Positions 18,120-48,281 of a stretch of 64,000 nucleotides of DNA are shown piece by piece. A model generated the notes under the pieces. It made no database searches. It saw nothing but the letters and a program-made list of their open reading frames with translations, and was not told where the DNA came from. The position numbers and the translations under genes are program-made. The DNA is taken from positions 467,599-531,598 of the forward strand of contig JAUIFF010000001.1 in assembly GCA_030429545.1 (NCBI GenBank). The letters are read 5' to 3'. The DNA comes from Polyangia bacterium (GTDB lineage Bacteria > Myxococcota_A > Polyangia > Nannocystales > Nannocystaceae). Position 1 is the stretch's first letter, and each line of letters starts with the position of its first letter.

Positions 18120-18190
18120 GGCGGCCCCGCGGACCTTGTAATTTGCAGGGAACCGCTCCGCTGCGGAGAAACCTCCCAGGAAGCAGGCTC

Positions 18191-20002: not shown

Positions 20003-20025
20003 GCAACCGAGCGTCCACAAAAGGT

Positions 20026-20056
20026 CGGGAGTGCTATGTAGCGCTCCCGATTTTTT
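20026..20056 (+). terminator. intrinsic terminator
   Basis: The stem cgggagtgc/gcgctcccg has loop tatgta, then a-ttttttaa. Confidence 0.5.
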
Positions 20057-20332
20057 AATGGTTGCAATGACCAAATAGTCATGGTGATGGGAAGCCACCC
20101 ATTGGGGGATAGAATCCTCGGATACATGTAGGGACATCCCCGCCTGTAGTCATTCGCAACAAAATCGAGAAAATGGGCTAGGCAATCGTAAAATCTTGGG
20201 GCAACGTAGAGGGGGCGATTTATCGCGGGCGACATTTGCTAAAAACCAAGGCCGTCGCTGTGCGTTGCGAAGTCCGAGTTGGGTTGTGTGGACCCCAGCC
20301 ATCTCGCTTACTGAGTCCGAGGAGCTTCCAAA

Positions 20333-21121
20333 ATGAGTGAAGAAAATTCAGCACTAATTGCTCTCAATGAGCTGCGAAACCTCGAAGAGGAGCGGCGCGC
20401 CGAAGAAGAGGCGGAACGCCGAGCAAAAGAGGAAGCAGAACGTAGAGCGCGTGAAGAAGCCGAGCGCAAAGCTCGCGAAGAAGCCGAGCGGATCGCCCGT
20501 GAAAAGGCCGAACGCGAAGCTGCCGAGCAGGCCGAACGTGAGGCCAAAGAACGTGAGGAACGCATCCGCCTGCAAGAGGCCGAGTTGCGTGCCCGTTCGG
20601 AGCAAGAGGCACTCCTGAAGCAGGAGCAGATGCGCCTCGATGCCAAGATGAAGCTCGAAGAGAAAAAAGCACGGCCGGTGTGGTTGTACGCCGTCGTCGG
20701 TATCCTCATCATCTCGATCGGCGGCATCAGCTACTACGGTTACGATCAGTTGCAACAGCAAGAAGCTGCCCGCAAGGCCGAGCAGGAGCGCAACGAAAAA
20801 CGCGAGGCCGAACGCCAAAAAGAACTCGAGAAGCTACGTGGCGAGCTCAGCAAACTCAGTGCCGAGCAGGAGCGCCTCGAGTCTGAGAAGGCCAAACTCG
20901 ACGAGAAGCTCGCCTCGGTTGAGGACGAGACCGAACGCCAGCGCCTGATGGCCGAGAAGGCCCGCCTCGATGCCGAACTTGCCGAGAACAAAAACAAGCA
21001 AAGCCGCAACAAAAAGCGTCGCAAAGGCGGAAGCAGCGGTGGCGGTGGTGGCGAGGAGCCCAAGAAGAAAAAACTCGTCGACATCAAGAAGGACGTCGAT
21101 GATCCGCTGGATGGTCTATAG
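20333..21121 (+). CDS. coiled-coil single-pass membrane protein (ER/K-rich); paralogue of 21272..22033
   Basis: It starts MSEENSALIALNELRNLEEERR. A charged EAERRA... helix is followed by RLDAKMKLEEKKARPVWLYAVV, a TM helix, a coiled coil and DPLDGL. There is no catalytic motif. Confidence 0.6.
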   Translation: MSEENSALIALNELRNLEEERRAEEEAERRAKEEAERRAREEAERKAREEAERIAREKAEREAAEQAEREAKEREERIRLQEAELRARSEQEALLKQEQMRLDAKMKLEEKKARPVWLYAVVGILIISIGGISYYGYDQLQQQEAARKAEQERNEKREAERQKELEKLRGELSKLSAEQERLESEKAKLDEKLASVEDETERQRLMAEKARLDAELAENKNKQSRNKKRRKGGSSGGGGGEEPKKKKLVDIKKDVDDPLDGL

Positions 21122-21145
21122 GACATAAAGCCAAGACAAGCGAGA

Positions 21146-21174
21146 GCGCCGGGTTTTTCCCGGCGTTTTTGTTT
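21146..21174 (+). terminator. intrinsic terminator between the two paralogues
   Basis: gcgccggg-ttttt-cccggcg followed by tttttgttt. Confidence 0.6.
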
Positions 21175-21271
21175 AACGCAGGATTGAGTGTTGATACAAA
21201 TAAAAAACCATAGACCAACAATCTAGCTGTTGCGTTTTGCTCGAGGGACGAACCCTATCGGAGTCGTTTAG

Positions 21272-22033
21272 ATGCCCTCAGAAAACTCAACACTCATTGC
21301 CCTCGATGAACTCCAACAACTCGAGCAGGAACGGGTTGCCACGGAACATGCACGCCTGCTCGCCCAACAACAGGCCGCCCGTGCAGCCCGCGAACGCGCC
21401 GAGCAACACGCGCGAGAGCTGCAACGCAGGCGCGAGCAGGAGCGACAAATCCGCGAAGCTCAGGAGCTTGCGCAGCGCCAGGCCCGAGCTCGCGAAGAGC
21501 GCCTGCGACTACAAGAAGCCGCGTTACGGCTGCAGGCCGAGCAGCAGCGTTTGCTCGAGCAAGAACGCCTACGGCTCGATGCCAAGATGAAACTCGAAGC
21601 CAAACGCGTCCGACCGGTGGGCTTGTATGCAGTGGTTGCAGGGCTGGTGCTGGCGATGGCCGGGTTGAGTACGGTCGGTATCAAAAAGTTGCAACAGCAA
21701 CGTTCCCAGTTTGCAAGCTCGCAACAGGCCCATGCGCAAGTTGAACGTGAGCGGCAGCAGGAGCTCGCCCAGTTGCGCGACGACTTGGGCAAGTTGAGTG
21801 CCGAGCAGCTTCGCCTTGAAGCACAAAAGCAACAACTCGATACCAAGCTCGCTGAGGTTGAAGATGCCGCGAGTCGGCAGGCCCTCATCGCCGAGAAACA
21901 GGTGATCGACAAAAAACTGCGGGACAACCGGCGCAAGCAGTCGCGCAAGACCCCAAAGTCCAAGCCCAAACCCGAAAAGCCGCGTATCGAAATCGTCACC
22001 AACCCCGAGGATCCCTTGGAGGGGATCAGTTAG
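21272..22033 (+). CDS. coiled-coil single-pass membrane protein (Q/R-rich); paralogue of 20333..21121
   Basis: It starts MPSENSTLIALDELQQLEQER and continues ...RLDAKMKLEAKRVRPVGLYAVV, a TM helix, KLSAEQLRLE and DPLEGIS. The architecture and motifs match the upstream gene. Confidence 0.6.
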   Translation: MPSENSTLIALDELQQLEQERVATEHARLLAQQQAARAARERAEQHARELQRRREQERQIREAQELAQRQARAREERLRLQEAALRLQAEQQRLLEQERLRLDAKMKLEAKRVRPVGLYAVVAGLVLAMAGLSTVGIKKLQQQRSQFASSQQAHAQVERERQQELAQLRDDLGKLSAEQLRLEAQKQQLDTKLAEVEDAASRQALIAEKQVIDKKLRDNRRKQSRKTPKSKPKPEKPRIEIVTNPEDPLEGIS

Positions 22034-33390: not shown

Positions 33391-33834
33391 ATGCAACAGG
33401 CCTCCCGTTTACGTCGAACGTTTCGCTGGGTACTCGCGATCGCCTTGATCGCCCAGGGCATCAACCACTTCATCATGGACGAGGGGATGATCAAAATGAT
33501 CCCCGACTACCTCCCAAAGCCCGCGCTGATGGTCTACCTCAGCGGCGTAGCCGAGGTTGTCCTCGGGGCCCTGATCTTTGTGCCGCGCCTACGTGTCCTG
33601 GCTGGCTGGGGGATCATCGCCCTGTTGTTTGCGGTGTTTCCCGCAAATCTCGAGATGGCGAGACACGCCGAAGCCTGGCCCGTACCCGAGTGGGCACTGT
33701 GGGCCAGGCTACCGTTTCAACTGGTGTTTATGTATTGGGCCTACGCGACCTGTATCGCCGCGGTCAACCGTCCGACTCAGCCGGAGACATTGAGGGTTGC
33801 TGAAGCATCAAACCCGCACACCGTACCCGAGTAG
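33391..33834 (+). CDS. DoxX-family membrane protein
   Basis: It has four TM helices and the FPANLEM motif typical of DoxX_2-like proteins. Confidence 0.6.
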   Translation: MQQASRLRRTFRWVLAIALIAQGINHFIMDEGMIKMIPDYLPKPALMVYLSGVAEVVLGALIFVPRLRVLAGWGIIALLFAVFPANLEMARHAEAWPVPEWALWARLPFQLVFMYWAYATCIAAVNRPTQPETLRVAEASNPHTVPE

Positions 33835-34334
33835 GTCGCGCTGACCGAGGTTGGGCCGGTTTCGACGCTGGCCGTCATGTCGATGACACAGCTGCCATTG
33901 ACGTCGCCGCTCCAGGTCACCTCGCCCGAATAGGCATAGTTGACCGAGGCCGAGCCATCGCCACTTGTTGAGGTCATCAGCTGGTAGTCGAGTGCACCGT
34001 CGATGGTCACGCCCTGGGTGGTACAGCCACTAAAGGTCGTTGTGTAGTCAAAGTTTGTCGAGTTGCCCGCGGTCGGGTTTTCGAGGTCGACCGTGGTTTC
34101 TAGGGTGCCTTTGAAGTGGGCGGAGCCGCCGTTTAGGCAATCGGCACTGGCATCGATATTTACCGTGGTGTCGGCGGCACGTGTCTGCACACTGTTGCTG
34201 CCATTTTCTAGCGCCGACTGGGTCGCAACCCAGCCCTTGGCCGCATCGTCTTCACTATTGACGGCCTCGGCCGAGTCACAGGCGGCCAGCAAGAGCATGC
34301 CGGCACACAGGCAAAACATGGGGGATGTTCGCAT
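33777..34334 (-). CDS. secreted Thr/Ser/Gly-rich lipoprotein
   Basis: It starts MRTSPMFCLCAGMLLLAACDS with a lipobox; 185 aa with several Cys. This is the C-terminal part of track ORF 33777..34886, whose upstream part looks non-coding. It overlaps the DoxX 3' end by 58 bp (convergent). Confidence 0.5.
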   Translation of the reverse strand: MRTSPMFCLCAGMLLLAACDSAEAVNSEDDAAKGWVATQSALENGSNSVQTRAADTTVNIDASADCLNGGSAHFKGTLETTVDLENPTAGNSTNFDYTTTFSGCTTQGVTIDGALDYQLMTSTSGDGSASVNYAYSGEVTWSGDVNGSCVIDMTASVETGPTSVSATYSGTVCGFDASATLNVSG

Positions 34335-34572: not shown

Positions 34573-37392
34573 ATGTACCTCGCTCCGCTCCTGTTGTTGC
34601 TAGGCATCACGCCACCCGACGCCGTTGAGCTTTCGGGCGAGCGTTGGCGCGAAATGGTGGCTGCAACCCAGACCGACGACGGGGTCCATGTGGCCTGGCC
34701 GGCTGCCCGCGATGTAGTGGTAACCCGGGTCGAAGCCGACGGCGGCCTGCTTGTCCGCGCCACGTGGAAATTGCGGGCACTCGGCAAGCGTCCATACGCC
34801 GACCGCCTGCTGGGGCCAGGAGGCCGGGTGTTGTCCGCGACCTTCAACGGCAAGCCGGCGACCTTGGCCAACACAGGCTCGGGCATCTACATTTTTGGCG
34901 AGGTCGATCGAGAGGCCACGGTTGCGCTCGAGGCCTTCGTTGAAGCCGATCCCCTGCGTGAGGCGGTGACCCTCGAGCTACTTCCAGCAGTGCGCGGACA
35001 GGTCCGTGTCGAGGCCGAGGGCTACCGGCCAAAACTCCTTGCTGGTGCATCCAATCGCCCAGCCATTCGGGTTGCCCGCGGGTTTTTGGCCGGTGACGAA
35101 CGCCTATCGCTTGAACTCGAGGCGAACACCAGCCACCAGCCGGCCGACACCCAGGCACTTGCGGTCGCCCGGGTGGGGATGGGATTGACGGTTGGCGACG
35201 CAGCGATCCGCGGACGCGCGCGGGTTTTGTGGGAGGTGCGTCGGGGCGAGCTTTCCCAGATTTCGTTGAACCTGCAAGGACTAGGAGACGACCTCGAGGT
35301 TCGCGGGACTGCGATTCGTGAGACACGGCGCGCGGGGGACCAACTCACAATCGTCCTCCAAGCGCCGAGCCGCGATCGGATTGAAGTTGAGCTGCAGTGG
35401 TCGACGCCGGTTGGCAGTGGTACCGAGACCCGGGCCGAGCTCCCCAAAATTGAACCGACGCAGAGCTACCGCACCCAAACGGCCGTCCAGCTCGCGCGCA
35501 GTGGCGAGGTCGAAGCCCTCCCGCAGCTTCCCGGTTGGCAGCCACAACCAGCCGCCCAATTGCCAGACTGGGCCCAGGGACTTGTCGAGGGTACGCCAAC
35601 GAGTGCCTATACAACATCTGCGCGGAGCGAGGGCCACCTCGACCTCCTCCGGTTTGTGCCCGTCGCCGGACCGCCAGTGGTTGTCGATGTCGCCGATTAC
35701 ACGATTGCCACCTCCCACGAAGGTCGCACGCTGACGACCGCACGCTACGAAATTCGCAACGAGCAGGCGGCGTTTTTAACGGTCACACCGCCGCCGGGAA
35801 GTCGGATTATTGGCGCCCGTGTTGCCGGCGAAACGGCCCTGCCGTCGCGCGGGCCAAACGGTGCCTGGCGGATCCCGCTGCAGCGCTCGGTCGAAACCGT
35901 CGAAGGCCTGTTGAGCTTTGCCGTTGAGGTTTCGCTGCTGGGGGAGACCACCTCCTGGCGCCGACGGGAGAAACGTGAACTCCCACTACCGGTTGTAGAT
36001 GCACCCATCGCCGTCGGTCGGGTCACGCTCTACCTCCCGCCCGGCTATCGCAGCAAACTCGGGCGCGGGGACGCGGGGACAGTTGTCGACTTCGACCGCG
36101 GTGAGGGCATCACCTATGGCTTTGCGGTGGGCGACACCAATGCCGTGCGGGCCGATGCCGTTTACCAACGTGCAGTCCGCAACTGGCTCGAAAACGACTT
36201 TGATGCCGCCCAAAACGACCTCGACGAACTTCGCAACTTAGGGGCGAGCAACGACAACATCGAGCGCTTGCAGTCCAACCTCGATGTGGTCGACGGGCGC
36301 TCGAGCGGCAAGGACAAAACCCTCGAGCGCAGGGTGAAAGAACAGGCGCGGGCACGGGCCCTAGCTGACCAGACCAAGCAGGAGCAGAAGCGACGCAAGG
36401 CCGAGGAGTACTACCGAGCCGGCGACTACGAACAGGCAGGGCGCGAGTACAAGGCCGCCCTAGAACTCGGCAAAAACCTCGAGCGCCTCGAAAACAGCGA
36501 GTCGGTCGAGCAACAGGTCGCCAATGAGTCGCTGCGGCAGCAGCTCGTGGTGACCGAAAAACAGGCCAAACGCACCAAACGGCGACGGCGGTGGGGCAAG
36601 TCGAAGGCCAAGGGCAAGAAGGTGCTAGCGAGCAAGGATGCGGGCCCGAGCTTCAGTGAGCGGACGATGGGCAAGACCCAAGCGGTTGACAAAGTCACCA
36701 CAACAGCGACTTCTACAGCGACGGTAACGGCTACCAAGCCAGACGCGGCAGCAACGAGTTTTGCCGGTGATGAGGCCGGTGGCGAACTCGTGGATGAGCC
36801 GGTCTCCGGAGTCGATGTGGATACAACCATTGCTGTGCGGGACCCGTCGCCCAAACCTCCCGACACTTCGAGTCCGCGCCAATCTGTCGTGAACGGGGCT
36901 GGTCTTGTGCAGGACGAAACCGTCGCCGACGAGCTTACCAAGGTATACGCTGGTACTGCCGGAGGGCAGGCTGGGGCGGGCACGGCCAATCCGGAACCCG
37001 TGAATGCACCCCAGGACGACGCTGAGGCCGAACCTATGGCACCGCCAGAGATGGCACCACCCGCGCCACCTCGGCTCTTGAGCCGCGATGCTCCCGCGAG
37101 TTCGTCGCGGTTTCGCAGGCGAGACCTGCGGAAGTCTCGCAGACGTGGGCGGGGAAGATTTGACCGCAAAAAGCGAGCCAAAAACTCTGACCTCGCCCGC
37201 GGGCCAGCAAAAGCACCCGCCGACCCCAACCAGGCACTCGCCAAACCCCAGGTCACCGCATCGGCGATGTCGGTGGTCATCCCGAGCTCGGGGCAACGCG
37301 TGCGCTACCAAAAAGTGCTGATACAACCTTCTGAGTCGACCACCGTCACCATCGACGCCCGGCTCCCCCTCTTTCGTCGATTTCGGAGATAA
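34573..37392 (+). CDS. large secreted protein of unknown function with a coiled-coil/TPR-like segment and an Ala/Pro-rich tail; paralogue of 37396..39273
   Basis: A signal-like N-terminus. The central region aligns with the next gene (TLTTARYEIRNEQAAFLTVTPPPGSRIIGARVAGE... versus RLTSVKYQIRNNRRQFLRLSLPKGAELWSASVGGR...). A 3-nt gap separates it from the next gene. Confidence 0.6.
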   Translation: MYLAPLLLLLGITPPDAVELSGERWREMVAATQTDDGVHVAWPAARDVVVTRVEADGGLLVRATWKLRALGKRPYADRLLGPGGRVLSATFNGKPATLANTGSGIYIFGEVDREATVALEAFVEADPLREAVTLELLPAVRGQVRVEAEGYRPKLLAGASNRPAIRVARGFLAGDERLSLELEANTSHQPADTQALAVARVGMGLTVGDAAIRGRARVLWEVRRGELSQISLNLQGLGDDLEVRGTAIRETRRAGDQLTIVLQAPSRDRIEVELQWSTPVGSGTETRAELPKIEPTQSYRTQTAVQLARSGEVEALPQLPGWQPQPAAQLPDWAQGLVEGTPTSAYTTSARSEGHLDLLRFVPVAGPPVVVDVADYTIATSHEGRTLTTARYEIRNEQAAFLTVTPPPGSRIIGARVAGETALPSRGPNGAWRIPLQRSVETVEGLLSFAVEVSLLGETTSWRRREKRELPLPVVDAPIAVGRVTLYLPPGYRSKLGRGDAGTVVDFDRGEGITYGFAVGDTNAVRADAVYQRAVRNWLENDFDAAQNDLDELRNLGASNDNIERLQSNLDVVDGRSSGKDKTLERRVKEQARARALADQTKQEQKRRKAEEYYRAGDYEQAGREYKAALELGKNLERLENSESVEQQVANESLRQQLVVTEKQAKRTKRRRRWGKSKAKGKKVLASKDAGPSFSERTMGKTQAVDKVTTTATSTATVTATKPDAAATSFAGDEAGGELVDEPVSGVDVDTTIAVRDPSPKPPDTSSPRQSVVNGAGLVQDETVADELTKVYAGTAGGQAGAGTANPEPVNAPQDDAEAEPMAPPEMAPPAPPRLLSRDAPASSSRFRRRDLRKSRRRGRGRFDRKKRAKNSDLARGPAKAPADPNQALAKPQVTASAMSVVIPSSGQRVRYQKVLIQPSESTTVTIDARLPLFRRFRR

Positions 37393-37395
37393 CCC

Positions 37396-39273
37396 ATGAC
37401 CACGTCCAAACCTCCCATTCGCACGCTTTCGCAACGCCTGCCCGGCCTTGTGGTGGTTGCCCTCCTCGCCCTGTCAACCACCGCCGCGGCTGCGCCCGAG
37501 GACCCGGCCGAGCGCGTGGTGATGAAGCTCGACGAGTTTTTAAAGCTCTACGAGGCCAACAAAAAAGCCGAGTCGCCCGAGCAGACGCCGCGTGACCATG
37601 CCCTGAGTTCGGCCCATTACACCGGGACGGTCGTGCTCGACGAGGGCAAACCGGTGTCGGCGGTTTTTACCGCGAAGATGCGGGTGGAGGTGCTCAAAAA
37701 CAAGGGCTGGGCACGGGTGCCGATTTTGCCGGCGACGGTGGCCCTGCAGTCGGCGACGATCGGCAAGACCGAGGCGCCGATCGTCATCGAAAATGGCTTC
37801 TATACGTTGGTGACCAATCGGCCAGGTGCGGTCGACCTTGACGTTTCGTTTGCCGTTGCTGTGACCACCTCCGAGGGGAAAAGCGAAATCACCTTTGAGC
37901 TGGCACCCTCGGGCGCGACCTCGGCCACGCTGTCGGTACCGGCCAAGGAAAACCTCGACTTCACCGTACCCGGGGCCAAACTCAAGTCCGACCGGGTCGA
38001 GGCCGAAAATCGGGTTGTCGAGGCCACCATGCCGGCAACCGGCTCCCTGTCGATCCAATGGCAACGCGAGATTCCCGAGGCGGCCAAACAGTCGTCGCGG
38101 GTGTACAGCGAAGTCTACACATTGGTCGGGCTCGGCGACGGCCTGATGAAGGCAACTACCACCATTCACAACACCATTTTGTTTCGCGGCGTCGACAAGT
38201 TCAGTGTCAAGCTGCCCGAAAAGATGACCCTGCTCGATGTCTCCGGTGTCGGCATTCGCGATTGGAAGCAGACGCCCGATGGCCACCTCAATGTCGTGCT
38301 CAACTACGCCGCCGAGGGCACCTACACCCTCAAGTTGGAGCTCGAGCGCGTGGTGCCGGAGGGTGAAAAACAGCTCAAGGCACCGATCGTGGTGCCCGAG
38401 GGGGTCGAGCGCTCGAAGGGCTGGGTTGGCGTCGAGTCGCGTGGCAACATCGAAATCGGGGCGGGCGACGTTTCGGGGGCAACCACGGTCGATGTCCGCA
38501 GTTTGCCGGCGGCGATTTTGGGCATTACGCCGCAGCCGGTGTTGCTCGGCTACAAATATTTAGGTGCAGATGCAAAGGTTCCCCTGAAAATTGCCCACCA
38601 CGAAGACGTCGACGTGCTGGTGACCCTGCTCGACCAAACCCGGGCGCGGACCATGTGGACCCGCGAAGGTCGGCGGCTGACCTCGGTCAAATACCAAATT
38701 CGCAACAATCGCCGGCAGTTTCTCCGCCTCTCTCTGCCCAAGGGCGCGGAGTTGTGGAGTGCCTCGGTGGGTGGCCGCGCGGTCCAACCGGCGCGAGCTT
38801 CAGACGGGCGCACCCTGGTGCCACTGGTCCGCTCACAGGCGGCAGGTGGGGCACTGGCGGCGTTTGAAGTCGAGGTTGTCTATGTCGAAAATGGTCAGGC
38901 GGTCTCGGACCGTGGGCGCGGCACATTCAAGGCAACCCTGCCAACCGCCGACGCACCGAGCACATATGTCGCTTGGACCATCTACGCACCCGAGCGCGCC
39001 AAGGTGATCAAGCGTACCGTCGATGGCAACCTTCAGTTGGTCCGCCGCCTGACCAATCCGATTCCCACCGAGGACATGAACTACATCGAAACAGCGACCC
39101 CCGAGGTGCAAAACGTCGCCAATGTACAGGCCGACGACGGTGGGATGGGCGAGGGGGCGGTGCCGGTACCGGTGAGCCTTCCGCTGCAGGGCAAAGAGGT
39201 CAACTTTGAAAAGCTGCTCGCCCTCGACGAAACCCTCGAAGTTGAATTTCGCTTTCGCGGCTTACGCAAGTAG
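37396..39273 (+). CDS. secreted protein of unknown function; paralogue of 34573..37392
   Basis: The signal peptide is LVVVALLALSTTAAAAP. The paralogous block is described under the previous feature. A 2-nt gap separates it from the vWA gene. Confidence 0.6.
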   Translation: MTTSKPPIRTLSQRLPGLVVVALLALSTTAAAAPEDPAERVVMKLDEFLKLYEANKKAESPEQTPRDHALSSAHYTGTVVLDEGKPVSAVFTAKMRVEVLKNKGWARVPILPATVALQSATIGKTEAPIVIENGFYTLVTNRPGAVDLDVSFAVAVTTSEGKSEITFELAPSGATSATLSVPAKENLDFTVPGAKLKSDRVEAENRVVEATMPATGSLSIQWQREIPEAAKQSSRVYSEVYTLVGLGDGLMKATTTIHNTILFRGVDKFSVKLPEKMTLLDVSGVGIRDWKQTPDGHLNVVLNYAAEGTYTLKLELERVVPEGEKQLKAPIVVPEGVERSKGWVGVESRGNIEIGAGDVSGATTVDVRSLPAAILGITPQPVLLGYKYLGADAKVPLKIAHHEDVDVLVTLLDQTRARTMWTREGRRLTSVKYQIRNNRRQFLRLSLPKGAELWSASVGGRAVQPARASDGRTLVPLVRSQAAGGALAAFEVEVVYVENGQAVSDRGRGTFKATLPTADAPSTYVAWTIYAPERAKVIKRTVDGNLQLVRRLTNPIPTEDMNYIETATPEVQNVANVQADDGGMGEGAVPVPVSLPLQGKEVNFEKLLALDETLEVEFRFRGLRK

Positions 39274-39275
39274 GG

Positions 39276-40856
39276 ATGCCAATGAAAACCCATGTATCGG
39301 CATGTATTCGGCGGCAAGTCGGGCGACTGGCCTGCCTGGGGCTGCTGCTGCCGATGTCGGTCGCCGCCCAGCCCGAGGATGACGAAGATGACGAGCTGAA
39401 AATCGTCGACATGGGGATGGAGGTCGAAGCCAGTGTTGAGCCAGCCCCGCGAACCATGGTGTTTGAATTCGATGCGGATATGGCCGCTCCGGAGATGCCA
39501 GATGTTGCGGTCGACACCCCGGGCGTGGCGGTTGGAGGGGCACGCGACGTCGATTTGGTACGCAGCCGGCTCGAATCGGGAAGAATTCCCGAGCCCGCGC
39601 TCTTAGCCAGTGAAGGGTTTTTGGCCGAATACGACCTGCCGCTGACGCCCGCACCGCGGTGCTCGCAAAAACTATGTATCAACACACAAACCGTGGCGAC
39701 GTCGTTGATTGCTCGGCCCGCAGTCCACTACCTGACGCAACTTGGGTTTGGCAGCAACCTCGACATGTCGACGTTTCAGCGCCCGCCGCTTTATGCCGTT
39801 GTCGTGCTTGACCTCTCGCCGTCGATGCGAGGCTCACCATTGGCGACCGCGCAAGCTGCGATTATTGAGGTTGCGAACCAGCTGCGACCCGGCGACCAAC
39901 TGACGATTGTTGGCTTTGGTGTGAAGCCTGTGGTGTTACTGCCGGCCACGCCGATGCCCAATGTTTCGGCCGTTCATCAAGCGGTTGCCTACACGGAGGT
40001 CGGTGGTGGTACAGCACTCGAGCGAGGGCTGCATGCCGGGGTCCAGCTCGCCCGTCGTGCCCCTGCTGGCTATGCCACCCGCGTGTTCTTGATCACCGAC
40101 GATCGACCCACCGTGGGGCGTACGAGCGGCTCACCGTTTGTCAACCTGGCGAAACGGTCAGCTTCGCAGGGAGTTTCACTGACGACCATTGGTGTTGGTC
40201 CGCACTTTCAGGCCCCGCTGGCCCGCGCGTTGGCGGCGGTTCGCGGGGGCAACACCATGTATGTCCGCGATCCGCTCCACGCCAGCTCTCGTATTGCCGA
40301 GGAGTTCCCCGCCCTGGTAACAGAGCTTGCATATGCACTCGAAGTAGTGATTGATCCCGCGCCCGGAATGGCGATTGAAGGGGTGTTTGGTGTGCCTGGG
40401 GACATGTTGGTGCGCGACGGCGACAAGGTATCTTTGCGCGTCGAGACCCTGTTTTTGAGCAAAAAGCGCGGCGCCATTTTTTTGGCCCTGGCACCAAAGG
40501 GGCGGGCCAATCTGCCACGTGGGGCGATGAGAACCGGCGCCCACCTGGGGACCGTGCATATGCAATACCGCGACCTCGACGGCTCGCTCGACACCGGGCG
40601 TTCACAACTGCGAAACATCCATCCCGGGCGCACTGGCAAGGGCCTGCAACGGGGCGCGCTGCTGATTGAGCAAATAGAGGTTCTGCGGGCGATTTCAGAA
40701 CGTTCGACCACCGGTGTCGGTCGCGAGGCGAGGGCGATGGCCGAGAAGTTGAGTGCCCGGTTTACCGACATACATGACCCGGAGCTCACGCCCGCAGTCG
40801 AGCTGACCCAAATGTTGAACGATGTTGTTGGCCGGTCGACCACTGCCCCGCGCTAG
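39276..40856 (+). CDS. von Willebrand factor type A (vWA) domain protein
   Basis: A signal peptide is present. The MIDAS motif is DLSPSMRG, with ...TDD... and TIGVG vWA strands. Confidence 0.7.
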   Translation: MPMKTHVSACIRRQVGRLACLGLLLPMSVAAQPEDDEDDELKIVDMGMEVEASVEPAPRTMVFEFDADMAAPEMPDVAVDTPGVAVGGARDVDLVRSRLESGRIPEPALLASEGFLAEYDLPLTPAPRCSQKLCINTQTVATSLIARPAVHYLTQLGFGSNLDMSTFQRPPLYAVVVLDLSPSMRGSPLATAQAAIIEVANQLRPGDQLTIVGFGVKPVVLLPATPMPNVSAVHQAVAYTEVGGGTALERGLHAGVQLARRAPAGYATRVFLITDDRPTVGRTSGSPFVNLAKRSASQGVSLTTIGVGPHFQAPLARALAAVRGGNTMYVRDPLHASSRIAEEFPALVTELAYALEVVIDPAPGMAIEGVFGVPGDMLVRDGDKVSLRVETLFLSKKRGAIFLALAPKGRANLPRGAMRTGAHLGTVHMQYRDLDGSLDTGRSQLRNIHPGRTGKGLQRGALLIEQIEVLRAISERSTTGVGREARAMAEKLSARFTDIHDPELTPAVELTQMLNDVVGRSTTAPR

Positions 40857-40956: not shown

Positions 40957-42162
40957 ATGGGGACGATTGCCACCACCGCAGGGTTTTATCGTGACCTCCC
41001 GGTCCTCCAAGACTTTGCCACGATCGCCGACGTACAGACGTACCAACCTGTTCCTGACGACTGGTATGTGGTGATCACAGATGTTGTTGGTTCGACCCGG
41101 GCGATCGAAGCAGGCCGCTACAAGCAGGTCAATATCGCCGGTGGGATCGCGGCGATGGCCATTTCAAATGCTCTCGACGACATGGAATACCCGTTTGTGT
41201 TTGGCGGGGATGGCATCACGATCTTGGTGTACAGCGATTGGACCGATCGGGTGCGCGATGTGCTTGCTGATACACAAAAAATGGTGGCAGAGATGTTCGA
41301 GCTGCACCTGCGGGTCGGGCTGGTCCCGGTTGGGGATGTACGGGCGGCGGGGTTTGACATTCGCGTCGCCCGGGTGGAAATCAGTCCGTACTATAGCCAA
41401 GCCATGATCGAGGGCGAGGGGCTCGATTGGGCCGAGGAGCAGATCAAGGCCACGCGAGCCATCAACCCCTACCTGGTACCAGCGACCCATAAGGCCAAAC
41501 ACCGGGCCGATTTCAGCGGGTTTTCTTGCCGCTGGGAGGATGTCAAAAGTCCGCGGGGCGAGACGCTGGCCCTGATCGTCAAGCCCCAAAGCACCGAAGT
41601 CGACCGCGCACGGGCGACAATCCAGTCGGTTTTGCAGGTTATCGAGGACCATCTCGGTGACGACTACCATCCATTGCGCGAGGACAAACTCAAACCGACG
41701 CTGCGGGCCAACTACCTCAACAACGAAATCGGCGTCACCAGTCATCGCAGCTCGTCGGTTCGCCGCGTGCTCACACGTATTCGTGTATACGCAGAGGTTT
41801 CGGTGCTCAAGCTCGTGCTCAAGCTTGGGTTGAAAACGAACATTCGCGTCAACGGTTACGAACTCGACAAGCTACCGGCCGAGAATGTGCGCTCGGCCGA
41901 CTTTCGCAAGTTCGACAACACGCTCAAGATGATCGTTGCTTGTACACCGAGCCAGCGCGAGGGGCTGGTCGCCCAGTTTGAGCAGATGTATCGCGCGGGG
42001 CAGGTGTTCTACGGCGTTCACGTGTCCGACCGGGCGCTGACGACCTGTATGATGCACGAAGGCTCGGCCCGGGAGGTGCACTTTGTCGATGCGGCTGGCG
42101 GCGGGTATGCGTTGGCGGCCAAACAACTCAAGGCGCAGCTTCGGCGCGCCCGCGGTGGCTAG
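40957..42162 (+). CDS. DUF3095-family protein with a nucleotidyl-cyclase-like N-terminal motif
   Basis: The ~400-aa length fits DUF3095. The N-terminus YVVITDVVGSTRAIEAGRYKQVN...FVFGGDGITIL resembles the class III cyclase (F/Y)xDIVG(F/S)T ... GDG core. Confidence 0.55.
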   Translation: MGTIATTAGFYRDLPVLQDFATIADVQTYQPVPDDWYVVITDVVGSTRAIEAGRYKQVNIAGGIAAMAISNALDDMEYPFVFGGDGITILVYSDWTDRVRDVLADTQKMVAEMFELHLRVGLVPVGDVRAAGFDIRVARVEISPYYSQAMIEGEGLDWAEEQIKATRAINPYLVPATHKAKHRADFSGFSCRWEDVKSPRGETLALIVKPQSTEVDRARATIQSVLQVIEDHLGDDYHPLREDKLKPTLRANYLNNEIGVTSHRSSSVRRVLTRIRVYAEVSVLKLVLKLGLKTNIRVNGYELDKLPAENVRSADFRKFDNTLKMIVACTPSQREGLVAQFEQMYRAGQVFYGVHVSDRALTTCMMHEGSAREVHFVDAAGGGYALAAKQLKAQLRRARGG

Positions 42163-42232: not shown

Positions 42233-43921
42233 CTAGTTTGAGCGCACGCGGATGGCGTCGGCGATCACAACGTCACCGGCCGCAGCCCAACACGAGAGGT
42301 CCACTCGGTTCCACCCCTGGTTGAAGTTGTAGGTCCCGAGGTTATTCCACTTGCCGCCATTTTGTTTCATGTTCGCGTGGACCGTGGCGAGCTTGGTGTT
42401 GTTAGAGTCGTAGACCAAAAACGGTGCGGCCGACGAACGGTTGTTACCCGAAACCCACCAGGCGTCGACCGTGAGGGTTTGCGCCGATTCGAGGTAGAAC
42501 TCAAACGAAGCCGGGTCGGATACGGCACCGGTTGAGCGCCACCAGTAGCCAGTGTTCCAATCGGTTGGACCACTCGACGAAACCCAGGTGTTCGAGACCG
42601 AGATTTTGGCATCGTCGCCGTTGTACGACTGATTGCTATCGACAATGATCTCGAGGTTGGGATCGGGCTCGGGCTCAGGCTCGGGCTCAGGCTCAGGCTC
42701 GGGCTCAGGCTCAGGCTCGGGCTCGGGCTCGGGCTCAGGCTCGGGCTCAGGAACGTTGTCGTTACAAAAATCGTTGATCAAGCCGATGTAGTTGTTCCAC
42801 GGCCAGTTGGCACCGGGGTCAACGCGGTTGTACGGCTGCAGCTGCCCGTGACCAACAATGTGGTACTTGTCGCGCGGGATGCCTTGGTCGCGGGTGATGT
42901 CACAGACCAACTCGGCCGACGCGTGGATCAGGCCCTTTTCCCACGAACCCTGGCTGGAGTAGCCCGCGTGCTCGATGCCGACGGTAAAGTTGTTGCTCCC
43001 CGAGCCGTTGCGCCAGCAGTCTTTGTCAGAGTTGAGCGAACACTTGTAGCTCGCGCCGATGTGCCAGGCCTTGCGGTTCTCGGCCACCAGTTGGGAGATT
43101 TCCGAGCCGTTGTTGTTGATGACGTAGTGGGCACTTACGCCTGAGTTGGGGTTTTTGAGCCAACTCCAGCAACCGCTGTAAGAACCTTCGCAGGTGTGGA
43201 TGATGACCATGTCCGCACCCCACGAGCCGCGTGAGCTGTTGTTGGGGGAGGGCCGCCAAATTGAGGGGGCGTAGTCCGGGCCAGAACCGAGTTGGACGTC
43301 GGGGAGGGCAGTGATGTCGAGGTCGAGATCGAGTGCGGTCGGGACCGGGCCATTTTCCATGGCCGGGTAGATTTCGTCGAGGACGTACGCGGCACGTCCC
43401 TCGTCGCCTTCAATGCCACTGTACTCGGCGACGATGTTGCCCCAGGCGTTGAGATCGTCGCGGTTGGCGATGCCTTCTCCATCGGCCTGTACCGAAAGCC
43501 AGGCGGCGGCGGCCCGAATATTTGCAAATGCATCGGTTTTGGCTTCGAGCTCGTCAACCCCCGCGAGTGAGGCACCCTCGCGCAGGATGTCGCCGCGTAG
43601 GGCCATCAGGCCGTAGGCAAGTTGCTGGCCGTCAAACTCCTCGGTGCCAACGACCATCTGCCAGCGGGTTTCGACCAGGGCGATTGATTTGAGCAGGTCG
43701 ACGGGAACGCTGAACTCGTCGGCAGCGTCGTCAAACATGCCGGCCAAATCGTCGGGGCTTGGGGTCTCGGGGGTGTCGAGCCCAGGGTTGTCATCGTCAT
43801 CGTCTCCACTTTCGCCATCGATGCCGGCACTGTCGCCGGGACCCCGGTCCTCACCAGTACAGCCAGGGGCCATGGCAAGTGCGAGCAGAAACACAGGGAT
43901 GCGTGGGTATGTAGCTTTCAT
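42233..43921 (-). CDS. N-acetylmuramoyl-L-alanine amidase (Amidase_2/PGRP) lipoprotein with a (PE)n linker and a C-terminal beta-rich domain
   Basis: The start is taken at [21 protein letters not shown] (lipobox) within ORF 42233..44089. The Amidase_2 motifs are AHYVI...AWHIGAS...GIEHAG. A (PE)14 linker and a W/N-rich C-terminal domain follow. Confidence 0.7.
42664..42750 (-). repeat. coding hexanucleotide repeat (gggctc/aggctc) encoding a (Pro-Glu)n linker
   Basis: About 15 tandem GGSTCR hexamers on the + strand encode [32 protein letters not shown] on the - strand. Confidence 0.8.
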
Positions 43922-44194
43922 GGAGGAACTTCCCGAGTTCAGGTGTCGGTGTTCTAACACACCATGCGACAGCAACGGGAAGCGGTTTTCTGTGCACCGG
44001 TGCACAAGTCTTCGTGTGTAGATGTGTGCGAATACAACGTTTACTATGCAAATGGTTACATCGTTGGGGACATCGTCTACAGGCCTCATTCCGCACGTGG
44101 GAGCTGTCCCAGTAGCCAGGGAATCTCCAGTCGATGTATGAACACGCTCCCGCGACCAACCGCTTGATCAAAATACGGCGAATGCTGGGAAAGT

Positions 44195-45874
44195 TTGGAC
44201 TCGATGCGCAACGACCTCAATCGTAAGTATGTTCTCCCGCTCCTTGGCGTGGTCCTAGCGGCTGCGTGCGGCGAAAGTTCGAGTACGACGACCGACGCGA
44301 CACAGACCGCTGGGACCGCACAAAGCACCACGGCCGAGCCAACTGGCGAAAGCGATAGCGATGCCACTTCGACGGGCGGGCCCACTTCGGGAACATCTTC
44401 GGTAACATCTTCGGTCACCGAATCCAGCTCCTCTGCGTCGACAGATGTGAGCGAGACTTCGCAGACGACCGGCGAGCCCCCACCAGAACTCACGTCGGTT
44501 GGCCATGCCAGGGAGTTCCGCGGGGCCTGGGTGGCGACCGTTTACAACATCAATTACCCAAGTGCGACGGGGCTGAGCCGCGCCGAGCTAGAGGCCGAAA
44601 TCGTCGACATGCTCGATACCCTCGAGCAGCTCAACTTTAATGCAATTGTGTTTCAGGTACGCCCAGAGTCGGATGCATTGTATGTATCTGCAATCGAGCC
44701 GTGGTCGCGGTTTGTCAGCGGGACCCAGGGCGTTGCCCCTGCCGATGGGTTTGACCCCCTTCAGTTTGTCACCGAGCAGGCCCATGCGCGCAACATCGAG
44801 GTTCATGCATGGTTCAACCCGTACCGCGCCAAGGTCAACAACCAGCTCGGAGCTGACCCTTCGCACATATCCGAAATCTATCCCGAGGCCGCCCACAACT
44901 ACGGCACCCTGTTGTGGATGGACCCGGGGGCCGAGGAGGTCAGCGGGTGGTTTGTCGATGTCATCGCCGATGTGGTCAGCAACTACGACATCGACGGCGT
45001 CCACTTTGACGACTACTTCTACCCGTACCCCGATGGCAGCCCGTTTCCCGACGATGCAACCTGGAGCGCGTACCAGCAAAATGGTGGGATGCTGTCGCGC
45101 GACGATTGGCGCCGCGACAACGTCAACCGCCTAGTTGAGGATGTATCGGCAACAATTTCAGCACTACGTCCGGACGTGCGCTTTGGCATCAGCCCGTTTG
45201 GAATTTACCGACCCGGGATGCCGGAGGGGATTACTGGCCTCGACCAATATGCCGAGTTGTTTTCAGACCCGGTGGCATGGATGGCCGCGGGGTGGGTCGA
45301 CTACCTCGCGCCCCAGCTGTACTGGCCATCGACCCAAGCGCCCCAGGCCTACGGCCCGTTGATCGCGTGGTGGTCGGAGCTGACTGCGGGTGACCAGGGC
45401 TATATTTTTGCCGGCAACTATTTGGCCAAGGTTGGGTCCGAACCCAAGTGGTCGGTCGATGAGTTCCTCACCCAGGTCGACCTCAGTCGGGGACAGCGGC
45501 CGAATGGTTCGTTTGGCAACATCTACTACCACATCGACCCGTTGATGAGCGACGCCGAGGGCGTTGCCACGGCGCTGTTTGAACATGCCTACACCGAGCC
45601 GGCATTGACTCCGGTGTTGATCTCCGCCCAGGGCGAAGAAATTCCCTACCCAGAGATTTCGGTGACTGGCGAGACCATCGAGCTGAGCCCGCCCGACGGC
45701 CTGGAGTCGACGGATTTACGTGCGTATACAATCTATACGTTTGTCGAGGGCGAATGGCAGCTCCACCAGGTCGTCGGCGGCGAAGCAACCTCGGTCGCGC
45801 TACCGGCCGGCCAGGTTGCGGTTGCCGCGGTCGATAGGCGTGGTGTGGAAAGCCTCGGGGTTGTTATCGAATAA
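44195..45874 (+). CDS. GHL10 (DUF187/YddW-like) glycoside-hydrolase-like lipoprotein with a Ser/Thr-rich linker
   Basis: It has a lipobox (LAAAC) and an STT-rich linker. The GHL10 signature is FRGAWVATVYNINYPS; the TIM-barrel-like body has DGVHFDDYFYP. Confidence 0.7.
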   Translation: MDSMRNDLNRKYVLPLLGVVLAAACGESSSTTTDATQTAGTAQSTTAEPTGESDSDATSTGGPTSGTSSVTSSVTESSSSASTDVSETSQTTGEPPPELTSVGHAREFRGAWVATVYNINYPSATGLSRAELEAEIVDMLDTLEQLNFNAIVFQVRPESDALYVSAIEPWSRFVSGTQGVAPADGFDPLQFVTEQAHARNIEVHAWFNPYRAKVNNQLGADPSHISEIYPEAAHNYGTLLWMDPGAEEVSGWFVDVIADVVSNYDIDGVHFDDYFYPYPDGSPFPDDATWSAYQQNGGMLSRDDWRRDNVNRLVEDVSATISALRPDVRFGISPFGIYRPGMPEGITGLDQYAELFSDPVAWMAAGWVDYLAPQLYWPSTQAPQAYGPLIAWWSELTAGDQGYIFAGNYLAKVGSEPKWSVDEFLTQVDLSRGQRPNGSFGNIYYHIDPLMSDAEGVATALFEHAYTEPALTPVLISAQGEEIPYPEISVTGETIELSPPDGLESTDLRAYTIYTFVEGEWQLHQVVGGEATSVALPAGQVAVAAVDRRGVESLGVVIE

Positions 45875-45876
45875 TG

Positions 45877-45894
45877 ACTACATGGACATGTAGT
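45877..45894. promoter_or_regulatory. perfect 8-2-8 palindrome actacatg-ga-catgtagt
   Basis: It sits immediately after the GHL10 stop and ~110 bp upstream of the small ORF. It may be an operator or a short hairpin. Confidence 0.3.
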
Positions 45895-46003
45895 TAGAGA
45901 CATGTTTTTGAGCGATTGCTTCGACTCGCTGAACGATTTGAGTTGCTCAGGCGGCAACGATTCTGGAAACTGCCCCTGCTAGAGTTCTTTTTAGGAGGAA
46001 GCA

Positions 46004-46147
46004 ATGACAGACGAGCCAACAAGCGAAGAAGAGACCCCTGAGACTGACGCAGAGCCTGCCGCCGAGGAGCGACCAACGCAGACGCCTCCGTCGTCAGGTA
46101 ACCGCCTCAATGACCAAGATATCACGCTGGGATTTATCCTGAAGTAA
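46004..46147 (+). CDS. unannotated 47-aa acidic small protein (MTDEPTSEEETPETDAEPAAEERPTQTPPSSGNRLNDQDITLGFILK)
   Basis: A strong SD (taggagga) sits 5-8 nt upstream of the ATG. The frame is open for 47 codons. A GC hairpin plus T-run terminator follows ~30 nt downstream. It is not in the supplied track (below 60 aa). Confidence 0.4.
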   Translation: MTDEPTSEEETPETDAEPAAEERPTQTPPSSGNRLNDQDITLGFILK

Positions 46148-46178
46148 TCCATGAGTGGCCGTTTGGTCGAAATCACCT

Positions 46179-46200
46179 CGGGGCGGCATGCCCCGTTTTT
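46179..46200 (+). terminator. intrinsic terminator after the small ORF
   Basis: cggggc-ggcat-gccccg followed by ttttt. Confidence 0.55.
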
Positions 46201-46250
46201 GATCGCCCGCAGGGAAATGTAGGGGAAATGTGCAAATACACAGTGAGTGT

Positions 46251-46281
46251 TTGACACTACGACGGTTTCGCCATGTGTAAA
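46251..46281 (+). promoter_or_regulatory. weak sigma-70-like promoter candidate (TTGACA ... TGTAAA) upstream of the cytochrome gene
   Basis: ttgaca is at 46251-46256, with tgtgta/tgtaaa 17-19 bp downstream. The -10 match is poor. Confidence 0.2.
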
Positions 46282-46341
46282 CCCATAGGTCTGGACGGAG
46301 AAATATCCCCGCGAGTCGCCTGGCCCGGGTATGCTGGCGAT

Positions 46342-46752
46342 ATGCGCAGGTGCTTGCTCGCTGGTGTCGTCGTGTTCGGTTGCTCGGCTGAACCGAAGAC
46401 TTGGGCGCAGCGCGATCGCGACGAACGGATGGCCTACATGCAAGAAGTTGTGTTGCCGACGATGCGCGAGATTTTTATTGCCTACGACCCAGACCGCTAT
46501 GCCGACTTTTCGTGTGCGACCTGTCATGGCAACGATGCCGCTGCGGTCGACTACGCCATGCCCAACGCCCTCGGCCCCCTACCGCTCGATGGCACCCTTG
46601 AGGTTGCGATGGCCCGCAATCCCGAGATGACGGCATTTATGCTCGACGAGGTGTTCCCAACCATGGTCGAGCTACTCGACGAGCAAAAGTACAATCCGCA
46701 ATCGGCTCCCAACGGCTACCGATGTGTCGGGTGCCACCTCGTGGCCGAGTGA
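46342..46752 (+). CDS. small dihaem c-type cytochrome lipoprotein
   Basis: There are two CxxCH motifs (CATCHG, CVGCHL) and a lipobox (VVVFGCSA). The start is at MRRCLLAG within ORF 46273..46752. Confidence 0.55.
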   Translation: MRRCLLAGVVVFGCSAEPKTWAQRDRDERMAYMQEVVLPTMREIFIAYDPDRYADFSCATCHGNDAAAVDYAMPNALGPLPLDGTLEVAMARNPEMTAFMLDEVFPTMVELLDEQKYNPQSAPNGYRCVGCHLVAE

Positions 46753-46862
46753 GATCTGCCGCCAGCAACATGCAGGTACACCGGGTCTGGGCTTGATCGG
46801 GTGCCCCAACGTGCAGATGTCGGTAGACGCTTTCGCACGCGGGCGCGATACTGCCGGCGCCG

Positions 46863-48281
46863 ATGACCGATTCAGCCAAGCCCAAGTTTTCCAGCGCATT
46901 TTGGACGGCCAACGCAGTCGAGTTGCTCGAGCGCGCCGCCTGGTACGGGGTGTTTGTTGCCATCACCCTGTACCTCAGCCGGATTCTTGGGTTTTCGGAC
47001 ATCGAGGCGGCAACGCTTTCGGGGGTGTTCTCGGCCGGGCTTTACCTGTTGCCGACATTTTCGGGGGCACTTGCCGACAAGCTCGGGTTTCGCAACTCGC
47101 TTTTACTTGCATTTGCATTGTTAACCATCGGCTACACCGGGATGTGGCTGTTGCCCACGTTGCTTTCGTCGGCTGGGCTAGTCACCTACGGGCGCGAGGT
47201 GGTGTTTACCGGCCTGGAGGCGAGCGGCTACAAGTGGCTGTTTATCCCGGTGATGCTGGTGGTGATGGTCGGCGGCTCGTTTATCAAGTCGGTGATCACC
47301 GGCACGGTCGCCCGCGAGACCACGGTCGAAACCCGGGCCCGTGGCTATTCGATTTTCTATGCGATGGTCAACATCGGGGCGTTTGGTGGCAAGACCCTGG
47401 TCAAGCCCCTGCGCGAGAGTATGGGTAACGAGGGGCTGGTGGTCCTCAACCTGTTTGCAGCCGGGATGACGGCACTCGCGTTTGTCCTGGTATATACACT
47501 TTATAAGGGCAACCGCGGCGAGGGCGAGGGCAAGTCGCTCGACGAGATTTGGCAGGCCCTGTTGGCGGTGCTTTCGCGCGGACGCCTCGTTTTACTCATT
47601 GTCATTATCACCGGGTTTTGGATGGTTCAGCACCAGCTCTACGCGACCATGCCCAAGTACGTGCTGCGGATGGCCGGGGAGGGGGCTTCGCCTTCGTGGT
47701 ACGCCAACGTCAACCCGGCGGTCGTTGTGCTCACGGTTGGCGCGGTGACGTCGATGATGCGGCGAACCTCGGCCCTCACGTCGATGACGGTGGGGATGTT
47801 CATCATGCCGGTCTCGGCGTTTTGCATGGCGGCCGGCAACCTCGTGGGCGGGAGCGAAATTCTCGGGCTCCACCCGGTGGCGTTTATGATGATCATCGGC
47901 ATCGCGTTTCAGGGGTTTGCCGAGAGCTTTATTTCGCCGCGATTTTTGCAGTACTTCTCGGTCCAGGCGCCCAAGGGCGAGGAGGGGCTGTACCTCGGGT
48001 TTAGCCACCTCCACTCGTTTTTGTCGTCGCTGTTGGGTTTTATTACCTCGGGGTTTTTGCTCGAGGCCTACTGCCCCAACCCGCGCACACTGTCGGCCGC
48101 TGAGCAGGCCCAGCGGGTGGCGGCACTGGAGGGCAATGGCCCGATGCCCGAGGCCTACGCCCATGCCCACTACATCTGGTATGTGTTTGTCGGGATTGCG
48201 CTTGTATCTGCAATCGCTTTGGTGGTCTACGGCAAGGTCTATGGCCACGGCGATGCCAAGCCGGCTGATGAGCCTAGCTAG
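46863..48281 (+). CDS. POT/PTR2-family (di/tripeptide:proton symporter-like) MFS transporter
   Basis: The ExxER(F)xYYG-like motif is VELLERAAWYGV. The PTR2 motif is FSGALADKLGFR. There are about 12 TM helices. Confidence 0.6.
   Translation: MTDSAKPKFSSAFWTANAVELLERAAWYGVFVAITLYLSRILGFSDIEAATLSGVFSAGLYLLPTFSGALADKLGFRNSLLLAFALLTIGYTGMWLLPTLLSSAGLVTYGREVVFTGLEASGYKWLFIPVMLVVMVGGSFIKSVITGTVARETTVETRARGYSIFYAMVNIGAFGGKTLVKPLRESMGNEGLVVLNLFAAGMTALAFVLVYTLYKGNRGEGEGKSLDEIWQALLAVLSRGRLVLLIVIITGFWMVQHQLYATMPKYVLRMAGEGASPSWYANVNPAVVVLTVGAVTSMMRRTSALTSMTVGMFIMPVSAFCMAAGNLVGGSEILGLHPVAFMMIIGIAFQGFAESFISPRFLQYFSVQAPKGEEGLYLGFSHLHSFLSSLLGFITSGFLLEAYCPNPRTLSAAEQAQRVAALEGNGPMPEAYAHAHYIWYVFVGIALVSAIALVVYGKVYGHGDAKPADEPS

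Follow-up and report, generated by a model that had tools for sequence, protein, structure and literature searches.

Do three genes that almost abut on a bacterial chromosome encode a single three-protein complex, or is the conserved system smaller than the operon suggests? The question is raised by a 64,000-nucleotide (nt) stretch of the genome of a Polyangia bacterium of the family Nannocystaceae (contig JAUIFF010000001.1, positions 467,599 to 531,598; hereafter the window), in which two large paralogous proteins, here termed P1 and P2, are encoded directly ahead of a protein with a von Willebrand factor A (vWA) domain. An earlier note, made from the letters of the DNA alone, had described three same-strand genes with gaps of 3 and 2 nt, of which the first two encode proteins of 939 and 625 amino acids (aa), and had read the trio as an extracellular or periplasmic adhesion or assembly complex rather than a metabolic one. 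The open reading frames (ORFs) confirm the arrangement, the gaps and both lengths. P1 and P2 are joined by TAA-ccc-ATG, with a GGAG located 7 nt 5′ of the P2 start codon within the 3′ end of P1, and P2 and the vWA gene are joined by TAG-gg-ATG. A second ATG at position 39282 is a possible start of the vWA gene and is the called start in the near-identical metagenomic contig L006; its use would widen the gap to 8 nt.

Gene order was compared in 86 related loci, 71 of which contain enough upstream DNA for P1 to be assessed and 80 of which are species-level genome loci. In 70 of the 71 Nannocystaceae/Polyangia loci the gene immediately upstream of P2, on the same strand, encodes a P1 module, and the commonest junction is an overlap of 4 nt. 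Pairs of P1 and P2 type are also found in two Planctomycetota loci, whose upstream genes (1459 or 1184 aa) display the P1 layout of module, TPR-like helices, coiled coil and terminal hairpin motif. The vWA gene, by contrast, follows P2 in 4 of the 80 species-level loci (L007, L008, L009 and L082), with P2 at least 78% identical to that of the window; beyond this set it also occurs after P2 in L004, L005 and L006, again with P2 at or above 78% identity. It is not found at this position in the loci from Nannocystis, Enhygromyxa, Plesiocystis, Paraliomyxa and Planctomycetota, and in Nannocystis, Plesiocystis and other loci unrelated genes are present instead. The earlier note had suggested conserved neighbourhood of all three genes as a check; synteny is conserved for the pair and not for the trio. 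The conserved unit is therefore a two-gene pair and not a vWA-centred three-protein complex, and the vWA gene is a recent, lineage-specific addition restricted to the nearest relatives. We consider it very probable that the P1-P2 pair is the core of the system and the vWA protein an accessory.

The two members of the pair differ in how strongly they are conserved. P2 orthologues from Nannocystis, Enhygromyxa, Plesiocystis and Paraliomyxa are 62-100% identical among the 120 matches listed, with a mean column identity of 72% over 31 sequences, and P1 orthologues are 34-99% identical over the module. Relative to L082, P2 is 92% identical, compared with 74% for DoxX, 72% for the P1 module, 70% for DUF3095, 68% for RecG, 67% for the amidase, 65% for the vWA protein and 63% for the SnoaL-like protein. 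With the other seven shared genes at 63-74%, P2 is the slowest-evolving gene of the neighbourhood. As a separate observation, the P1 orthologue in L004 (6847-10004; GCA_020633295.1) is split by gene calling into two genes, one of 864 and one of 188 aa, which may reflect a frameshift or an assembly error.

An internal block alignable between P1 and P2 had been recognized by the earlier note. BLASTP bears this out (P1 residues 381-489 versus P2 residues 422-532; 36% identity over 111 aa, E=1e-13), and profile comparisons reveal that the paralogy is much wider. A hidden Markov model (HMM) of 32 P1 orthologues matches P2 residues 23-553 (E=1.3e-42), and hhalign aligns the P1 and P2 modules over 484 columns with a probability of 99.7% (E=1.3e-25). 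The paralogy comprises an approximately 500-aa module of three β-sandwich domains and a shared C-terminal β-hairpin.

The AlphaFold2 model of P2 (predicted local distance difference test score (pLDDT) 72.7) is all-β and contains about three sandwich domains (residues ~68-225, ~235-360 and ~380-550), followed by a poorly predicted spacer and a confident hairpin (residues 600-621, pLDDT 84-87). The P1 model (pLDDT 76.2; 504 residues at or above 90) is composed of a β module (residues 40-490), a helical region (521-682), a disordered stretch (685-898) and again a confident terminal hairpin (909-930, pLDDT 94-96), which is kept in all full-length P1 orthologues. The disordered linker has a pLDDT below 50 and consists of 17% Ala and 11% Pro; its length and sequence differ widely between orthologues. 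Because the terminal hairpins are homologous (P1 896-931 versus P2 588-622, hhalign E=2.9e-5), P1 is essentially P2 with an insertion of about 400 residues between module and hairpin. The two proteins had been thought to differ in their tails, and P1 does possess TPR-like helices and an Ala/Pro-rich stretch; this tail, however, is an insertion, and the terminal hairpin is common to both proteins. A Pfam scan of the 32 P1 orthologues detected only a weak TPR signal. Neither P1 nor P2 contains a cysteine or an internal transmembrane (TM)-like segment.

The module is not confined to the Nannocystaceae. A profile of 31 P2 orthologues retrieved 4731 cluster representatives at E<=1e-3, of which 1543 also reach E<=1e-30, each representing a cluster at 50% identity. 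Named bacterial members belong to Myxococcota, Planctomycetota (Phycisphaerae, Brocadiia), Verrucomicrobiota (including Pedosphaera), Acidobacteriota, Armatimonadota and Candidatus Schekmanbacteria, and named archaeal members to Altiarchaeales. The 141 full-length top representatives include 63 in which two modules share one chain, every one with predicted TM segments, and 73 with a single module, of which 55 have TM segments and 18 do not; the TM-less single-module forms include the P2 type of Myxococcota and Planctomycetota. Fused proteins are arranged as signal, module, hairpin motif, several TM helices, second module, hairpin motif and TM helices. In TM-anchored homologues the module is flanked by an N-terminal signal-like segment on one side and the TM helices on the other, and the motif GVLPVR..P..G....F.KLLV, located directly before the TM segments of fused homologues, is the counterpart of the P2 terminal hairpin. 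The halves of the fused proteins show only a trend towards an N-terminal P1-like and a C-terminal P2-like module, both being closer to the P2 profile. The family includes membrane proteins of 2000-2700 residues, and giant forms of 2100-2700 aa have a duplicated middle domain; one of these giant forms (L134:2122-11936) is split into genes of 1960 and 1311 aa with a 4-nt overlap that mirrors the P1-P2 junction. Taken together, the conserved, self-sufficient unit consists of two modules, present either as coupled genes or as one fused protein. The 1960-aa product of the split giant form also displays a faint prepilin-like match at its N-terminus.

In one fused clade, the third domain of module 1 contains an inserted LysM domain, a peptidoglycan-binding type (for example, residues 475-523 of P0265). 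It was detected in 9 of 31 representatives by Pfam and in 11 of 31 by NCBIfam, and is the sole match to either resource among these 31 fused homologues. No neighbour family is common to more than 6 of 32 metagenomic loci of this LysM-fused clade, and three fused or giant loci from other phyla have no common partner; Band_7 genes near two of these three were judged anecdotal. The neighbours of the Nannocystaceae pair are clade-specific only (vWA, GT-C, aminotransferase). Two individual arrangements are recorded here for completeness. In L092 (5548-9138, 15533-16981) the fused homologue is preceded by three Band_7 (SPFH) genes and followed by an M48 peptidase gene, and in L090 (14551-16917, 22709-23809) a third family member directly follows the fused gene, with a Band_7 gene 8 kb further.

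Signal peptides had been assigned to both paralogues. For P2 the assignment holds: its N-terminus is a classical signal peptide whose KD19 hydrophobicity of 2.0 at residue 15 marks the strongest window of the protein. P1 begins with only a short, uncharged hydrophobic stretch (MYLAPLLLLLGI; KD19 1.33). The Planctomycetota P1 homologue L087 has a canonical signal peptide. The N-terminus of the vWA protein is signal-like by eye, with basic residues and LLLPMSVAA followed by QPED, and of modest hydrophobicity (KD19 1.28). Judged from these sequence features, the P1/P2 pair is probably exported and would be located in the cell envelope.

Which known proteins does the module resemble? P1 and P2 match no family in Pfam, NCBIfam or PADLOC scans. 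Their shared blocks, 35 diverse homologues and the 32 P1 orthologues match no Pfam family beyond the weak TPR signal in the latter, the family profiles match no PDB sequence at E up to 10, and a literature search found no publication on the family. The earlier note had been unable to place the pair, in agreement with these scans; the conserved core belongs to a large family without a description in any curated resource. Foldseek searches against the PDB place ribophorin I/Ost1 chains of oligosaccharyltransferase complexes on top (E=9e-9 to 2e-7, ~430 columns), with integrin α legs and M1 aminopeptidase N-domains lower down and Gram-positive adhesins also matched at lower scores. By fold, the module is thus akin to the M1-aminopeptidase N-domain and to Ost1/ribophorin I, and more weakly to the VIT domain. 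These three are non-catalytic domains that hold peptides or ligands. No recognizable enzyme domain was found in P1/P2 by Pfam and NCBIfam scans or in the 35 diverse homologues by Pfam. M1 aminopeptidases, LTA4 hydrolase and TAF2 share the accessory N-terminal β domain with the module, whereas P1/P2 lack the peptidase catalytic domain and its zinc-binding motif; no Pfam peptidase domain is found in either protein, and the M1 similarity is limited to the structural match of that N-terminal β domain.

The match to the Ost1 tandem β-sandwich is good, and the family, like Ost1, would lie on the non-cytoplasmic side of the membrane. In most distant homologues TM helices come straight after the module. 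Unlike Ost1, however, the module has three domains instead of two and is paired, P1/P2 are devoid of a TM helix, and the P1-P2-vWA operon encodes no STT3-type partner. Ribophorin_I (PF04597) matches neither P1 nor P2 nor any of the 35 diverse family members. Since the sequence identity of the fold matches is 5-15%, they constitute a statement about fold class and not proof of homology. Homology of the modelled module to Ost1 is unproven, and the likeness applies at the fold level only. A 2016 survey by BLASTp found no Ost1-like prokaryotic sequences (PMC4973528), and the fold link hence merits a rigorous test.

The relationship to the VIT domain is more elusive. One P1 orthologue carries the UniRef name "VIT domain-containing protein". 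Nevertheless, scans with thresholds up to E=10 list neither VIT model (PF08487 or PF13757) for the two paralogues or the blocks they share, although HMMER filters drop most matches above E ~0.1, and none of the 35 diverse family members or 32 P1 orthologues is matched at E up to 1.

The third protein agrees with its first description. The DxSxS signature of a metal ion-dependent adhesion site (MIDAS) noted previously is part of a complete site, formed by D179-x-S181-x-S183, T246 and D275/D276, within a domain matched by Pfam VWA (E=8e-13) and also by VWA_2 and VWA_3; Pfam matches no other domain. The chain consists of a signal-like N-terminus, a region of ~140 residues, the vWA domain (175-330) and ~190 C-terminal residues, and the regions flanking the vWA domain have no Pfam match. 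By eye, the segment ahead of the domain may resemble the N-terminal region of YfbK-type vWA proteins. The protein has no TM anchor, as it contains only the N-terminal signal-like segment, with a top hydrophobic window of 1.49. The nearest PDB sequences to the vWA domain are ITIH4 (E=1.5e-9) and ITIH1, members of a family in which the vWA domain comes after a VIT domain on one polypeptide. This kinship and the complete MIDAS recall the VIT-vWA proteins (ITIH1/4, TIGR03788), and the operon looks like a split, elaborated variant of the theme of VIT-like plus ITIH-type vWA domains. Here, though, the VIT-like domain and the vWA domain reside on separate proteins, with no vWA domain in P1/P2; their adjacency is of shallow evolutionary depth, neither VIT nor VIT_2 of Pfam gives a match, and the VIT-like domain forms part of a larger module that is itself duplicated. 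The TIGR03788 match spans the vWA domain only, at 27.5 bits against a cut-off of 551.

These data bear on several explanations of the locus. One reading, in which the trio makes up a single extracellular or periplasmic complex for adhesion or assembly, the MIDAS-containing vWA protein being an integral part and a VIT-vWA architecture being split over genes, is suggested by the gaps of 3 and 2 nt, by the ITIH type of the vWA domain and by persistence of the trio down to 78-79% P2 identity. It is unlikely, as 76 of the 80 species-level loci, and Planctomycetota too, have no vWA gene after P2, other sub-clades carry different genes there such as a GT-C glycosyltransferase, the vWA protein diverges faster than P2 (65% versus 92% identity to L082) and no Pfam VIT match is obtained. 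That glycosyltransferase leads to another proposal, namely that P1/P2 are Ost1-like accessory subunits that hold the substrate or product of a membrane GT-C enzyme in protein O-/N-glycosylation or envelope glycan assembly. Ost1 has a C-terminal TM anchor, as do many distant homologues of the family, and a PMT_2 (GT-C) gene is located just downstream of P2 in 10 related loci (L033-L037, L039-L041, L046 and L086), directly after P2 in most of them but at a distance of ~0.7 kb in L039 and 5.4 kb in L086. All ten nonetheless belong to one Nannocystaceae sub-clade, and the 477-aa multi-TM product (E=8.9e-6, for example, L036:11832-13265) scores 26.4 bits, barely above the cut-off of 26.1. Moreover, the operon contains no GT-C gene and none was found among those larger window ORFs covered by the scan, there is no Ribophorin_I sequence match, and the fold match is unspecific because M1 N-domains score as well as Ost1. 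We regard this proposal as distinctly improbable.

Still less credence can be given to P1/P2 as secreted surface adhesins, matrix proteins or predation factors of a social myxobacterium. Such a role, which we consider very unlikely, would agree with exported multi-β-sandwich proteins beside a vWA gene and with the lower-scoring structural matches to integrin legs and Gram-positive adhesins. Adhesins and predation factors are, however, expected to diverge fast and to be lineage-restricted, but P2 is the most conserved gene of its neighbourhood, and the family is common to Planctomycetota, Acidobacteriota and archaea and consists mostly of integral membrane proteins. The earlier note had named a standard Bat/aerotolerance or pilus-tip vWA operon among the findings that would overturn its view, and neither was found. 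With its exported vWA protein, its TPR-containing protein and its large β-rich exported protein, the locus does bear a superficial likeness to Bat or MoxR-vWA systems. Yet BatD (PF13584), BatA, MoxR (AAA_3) and DUF58 are absent from the operon, its flanks and the other large ORFs scanned in the window, and the vWA protein is unanchored and dispensable for the conserved unit, leaving membership of such a system scarcely credible. A pilus-tip or sortase-anchored vWA adhesin was rejected, as the neighbours are RecG, SnoaL-like, DoxX, lipoprotein, DUF3095 and amidase genes, with no pilin, sortase or usher and no sorting signal.

We favour instead a heteromeric P1-P2 scaffold of the cell envelope to which the ITIH-type vWA protein has been added as a lineage-specific accessory, an account that as a whole we hold at slightly below an even chance. 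Of the earlier proposal, the non-metabolic envelope role remains the most reasonable, whereas the vWA-centred trio does not. Several observations speak against the scaffold account. The export signal of P1 is weak by sequence, the tight spacing of 2 nt from P2 to the vWA gene may yet mean that the two are functionally coupled in the lineage of the window, and the fold matches concern common β-sandwich classes. LysM is confined to one clade and occurs in neither P1 nor P2. In addition, some homologues, such as that of the Armatimonadota locus L133, are single modules with no partner nearby, and pairing is thus not universal.

The components of the scaffold account differ in strength. That P1 and P2 physically associate in an envelope heterocomplex appears reasonably probable. 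The two diverged modules would assemble as a heteromeric pseudo-dimeric complex on the non-cytoplasmic side of a membrane, the last domain of each, of M1-N/Ost1/VIT-like fold, being closed by the conserved C-terminal β-hairpin. P2 would provide the constrained core, and P1 would add a looped-out arm of TPR/MIT-like bundle, long helices and disordered basic linker, through which it may extend to, or bind, further parts of the envelope. Taken together, the LysM insertion, the position of the hairpin next to the membrane and the non-catalytic fold class suggest that the complex makes contact with the cell wall and serves as a structural element or tether, not as a catalyst. It could accordingly be pictured as a non-enzymatic scaffold or tether for an envelope polymer, either peptidoglycan/glycan or an extended peptide; this polymer-binding function is tentative and on the doubtful side. 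The vWA protein might dock on the VIT-like domain or contribute a metal-dependent ligand contact, and we infer both the ligand class and any contact between P1/P2 and the vWA protein. A bolder formulation, which we rate as rather doubtful, is that P1/P2 represent the soluble two-gene form of an ancient envelope assembly of two co-expressed or fused Ost1/ribophorin-like ectodomain modules, possibly related to Ost1 and of undescribed function, for example in handling or tethering peptidoglycan or glycan chains.

The coordinates of the trio and its closest neighbours are compiled in Table 1. The genes around the trio encode RecG, SnoaL-like, DoxX, a small lipoprotein, DUF3095 and amidase proteins (Pfam), and the remainder of the window resembles core chromosome (purH, purD, hisS, purA, recG, xanthine dehydrogenase); close homologues all stem from Nannocystaceae or Polyangia, in keeping with the myxobacterial assignment. 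Upstream of P1, an Rfam search yielded no credible RNA element, and promoter and terminator scans of this region were uninformative. A 369-aa minus-strand ORF overlapping the P1 start was dismissed as a spurious product of the ORF-start rule; the true gene at this position encodes the 180-aa lipoprotein. As additional subunits, both the small lipoprotein, which is conserved only in L006 and L082 (72% identity), and the DUF3095 protein were rejected; the DUF3095 gene is located 3′ of the vWA gene only in L006 and L082 and hence probably lies outside the unit. By eye it contains an FGGDG motif, presumably reminiscent of nucleotide cyclases.

Table 1. Features of the P1-P2-vWA locus (window coordinates).
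Feature	Coordinates	Strand	Description	Evidence
P1 gene	34573..37392	+	939 aa; large paralogue: module, helical and disordered insertion, C-terminal hairpin	ORF, orthologues, AlphaFold2 model
P1 β-sandwich module	34690..36042	+	aa ~40-490; includes VIT-like block aa 381-489 (nt 35713-36039)	
P1 helical region	36133..36618	+	aa 521-682; TPR/MIT-like bundle, long helices	
P1 disordered linker	36625..37266	+	aa 685-898; Ala/Pro/Thr-rich, strongly basic patch at ~aa 847-869	
P1 C-terminal β-hairpin	37297..37362	+	aa 909-930; homologous to P2 C-terminus	
P2 gene	37396..39273	+	625 aa; compact paralogue	ORF, orthologue identities
P2 signal peptide	37396..37494	+	aa 1-33; cleavage around AAA/AP boundary	Read from sequence and hydrophobicity
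P2 three-domain β module	37597..39045	+	aa ~68-550; includes VIT-like block aa 422-532 (nt 38659-38991)	
P2 C-terminal β-hairpin	39193..39258	+	aa 600-621	
vWA gene	39276..40856	+	526 aa; exported vWA protein; alternative start 39282	ORF, Pfam VWA/VWA_2/VWA_3
vWA domain	39798..40265	+	aa 175-330; DLSPS at aa 179-183 (nt 39810-39824)	Pfam E=8e-13
Lipoprotein gene	33777-34319	-	180 aa; lipobox LLAAC; divergent from P1, inside spurious 369-aa ORF	
DUF3095 gene	40957-42162	+	100 nt past vWA gene	Pfam E=7.6e-132

Further features of the window are of independent interest. Near the operon lie a convergent gene for an Amidase_2 and Golvesin_C protein (42233-44089, minus strand), a GHL10 glycosyl-hydrolase-like gene (44195-45874, plus strand) and an MFS/POT transporter gene (46863-48281, plus strand), and this region (42233-48281) could be a cluster for cell-wall turnover or recycling. 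An A-rich stretch (18104-22033, AT skew 0.16-0.30) includes a zinc-ribbon and GYF_2 protein with long Gly/Ser/Lys low-complexity regions (18104-20002) and two tandem genes (20333-21121 and 21272-22033), paralogous by eye, for charged E/R/K/A-rich helical proteins with one central hydrophobic segment each. At 56025-61379 (plus strand) is encoded a 1784-aa protein with a kinase-like domain, AAA_16 (STAND-type NTPase) and GAF domains, resembling the large signalling proteins common in myxobacteria.

For the annotation of such loci, the vWA gene should not serve to infer the function of the pair. The family itself comprises thousands of clusters at 50% identity that are not covered by a curated model and are distributed across several bacterial phyla and Altiarchaeales. 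Co-expression or fusion of the modules, the strong constraint on P2 and the LysM insertion in one clade argue for a basic role in the cell envelope rather than that of a niche adhesin. If the module proves to be a genuine relative of Ost1 or VIT domains, the family would provide a prokaryotic context for folds that are discussed mainly in eukaryotic glycosylation and extracellular-matrix proteins.

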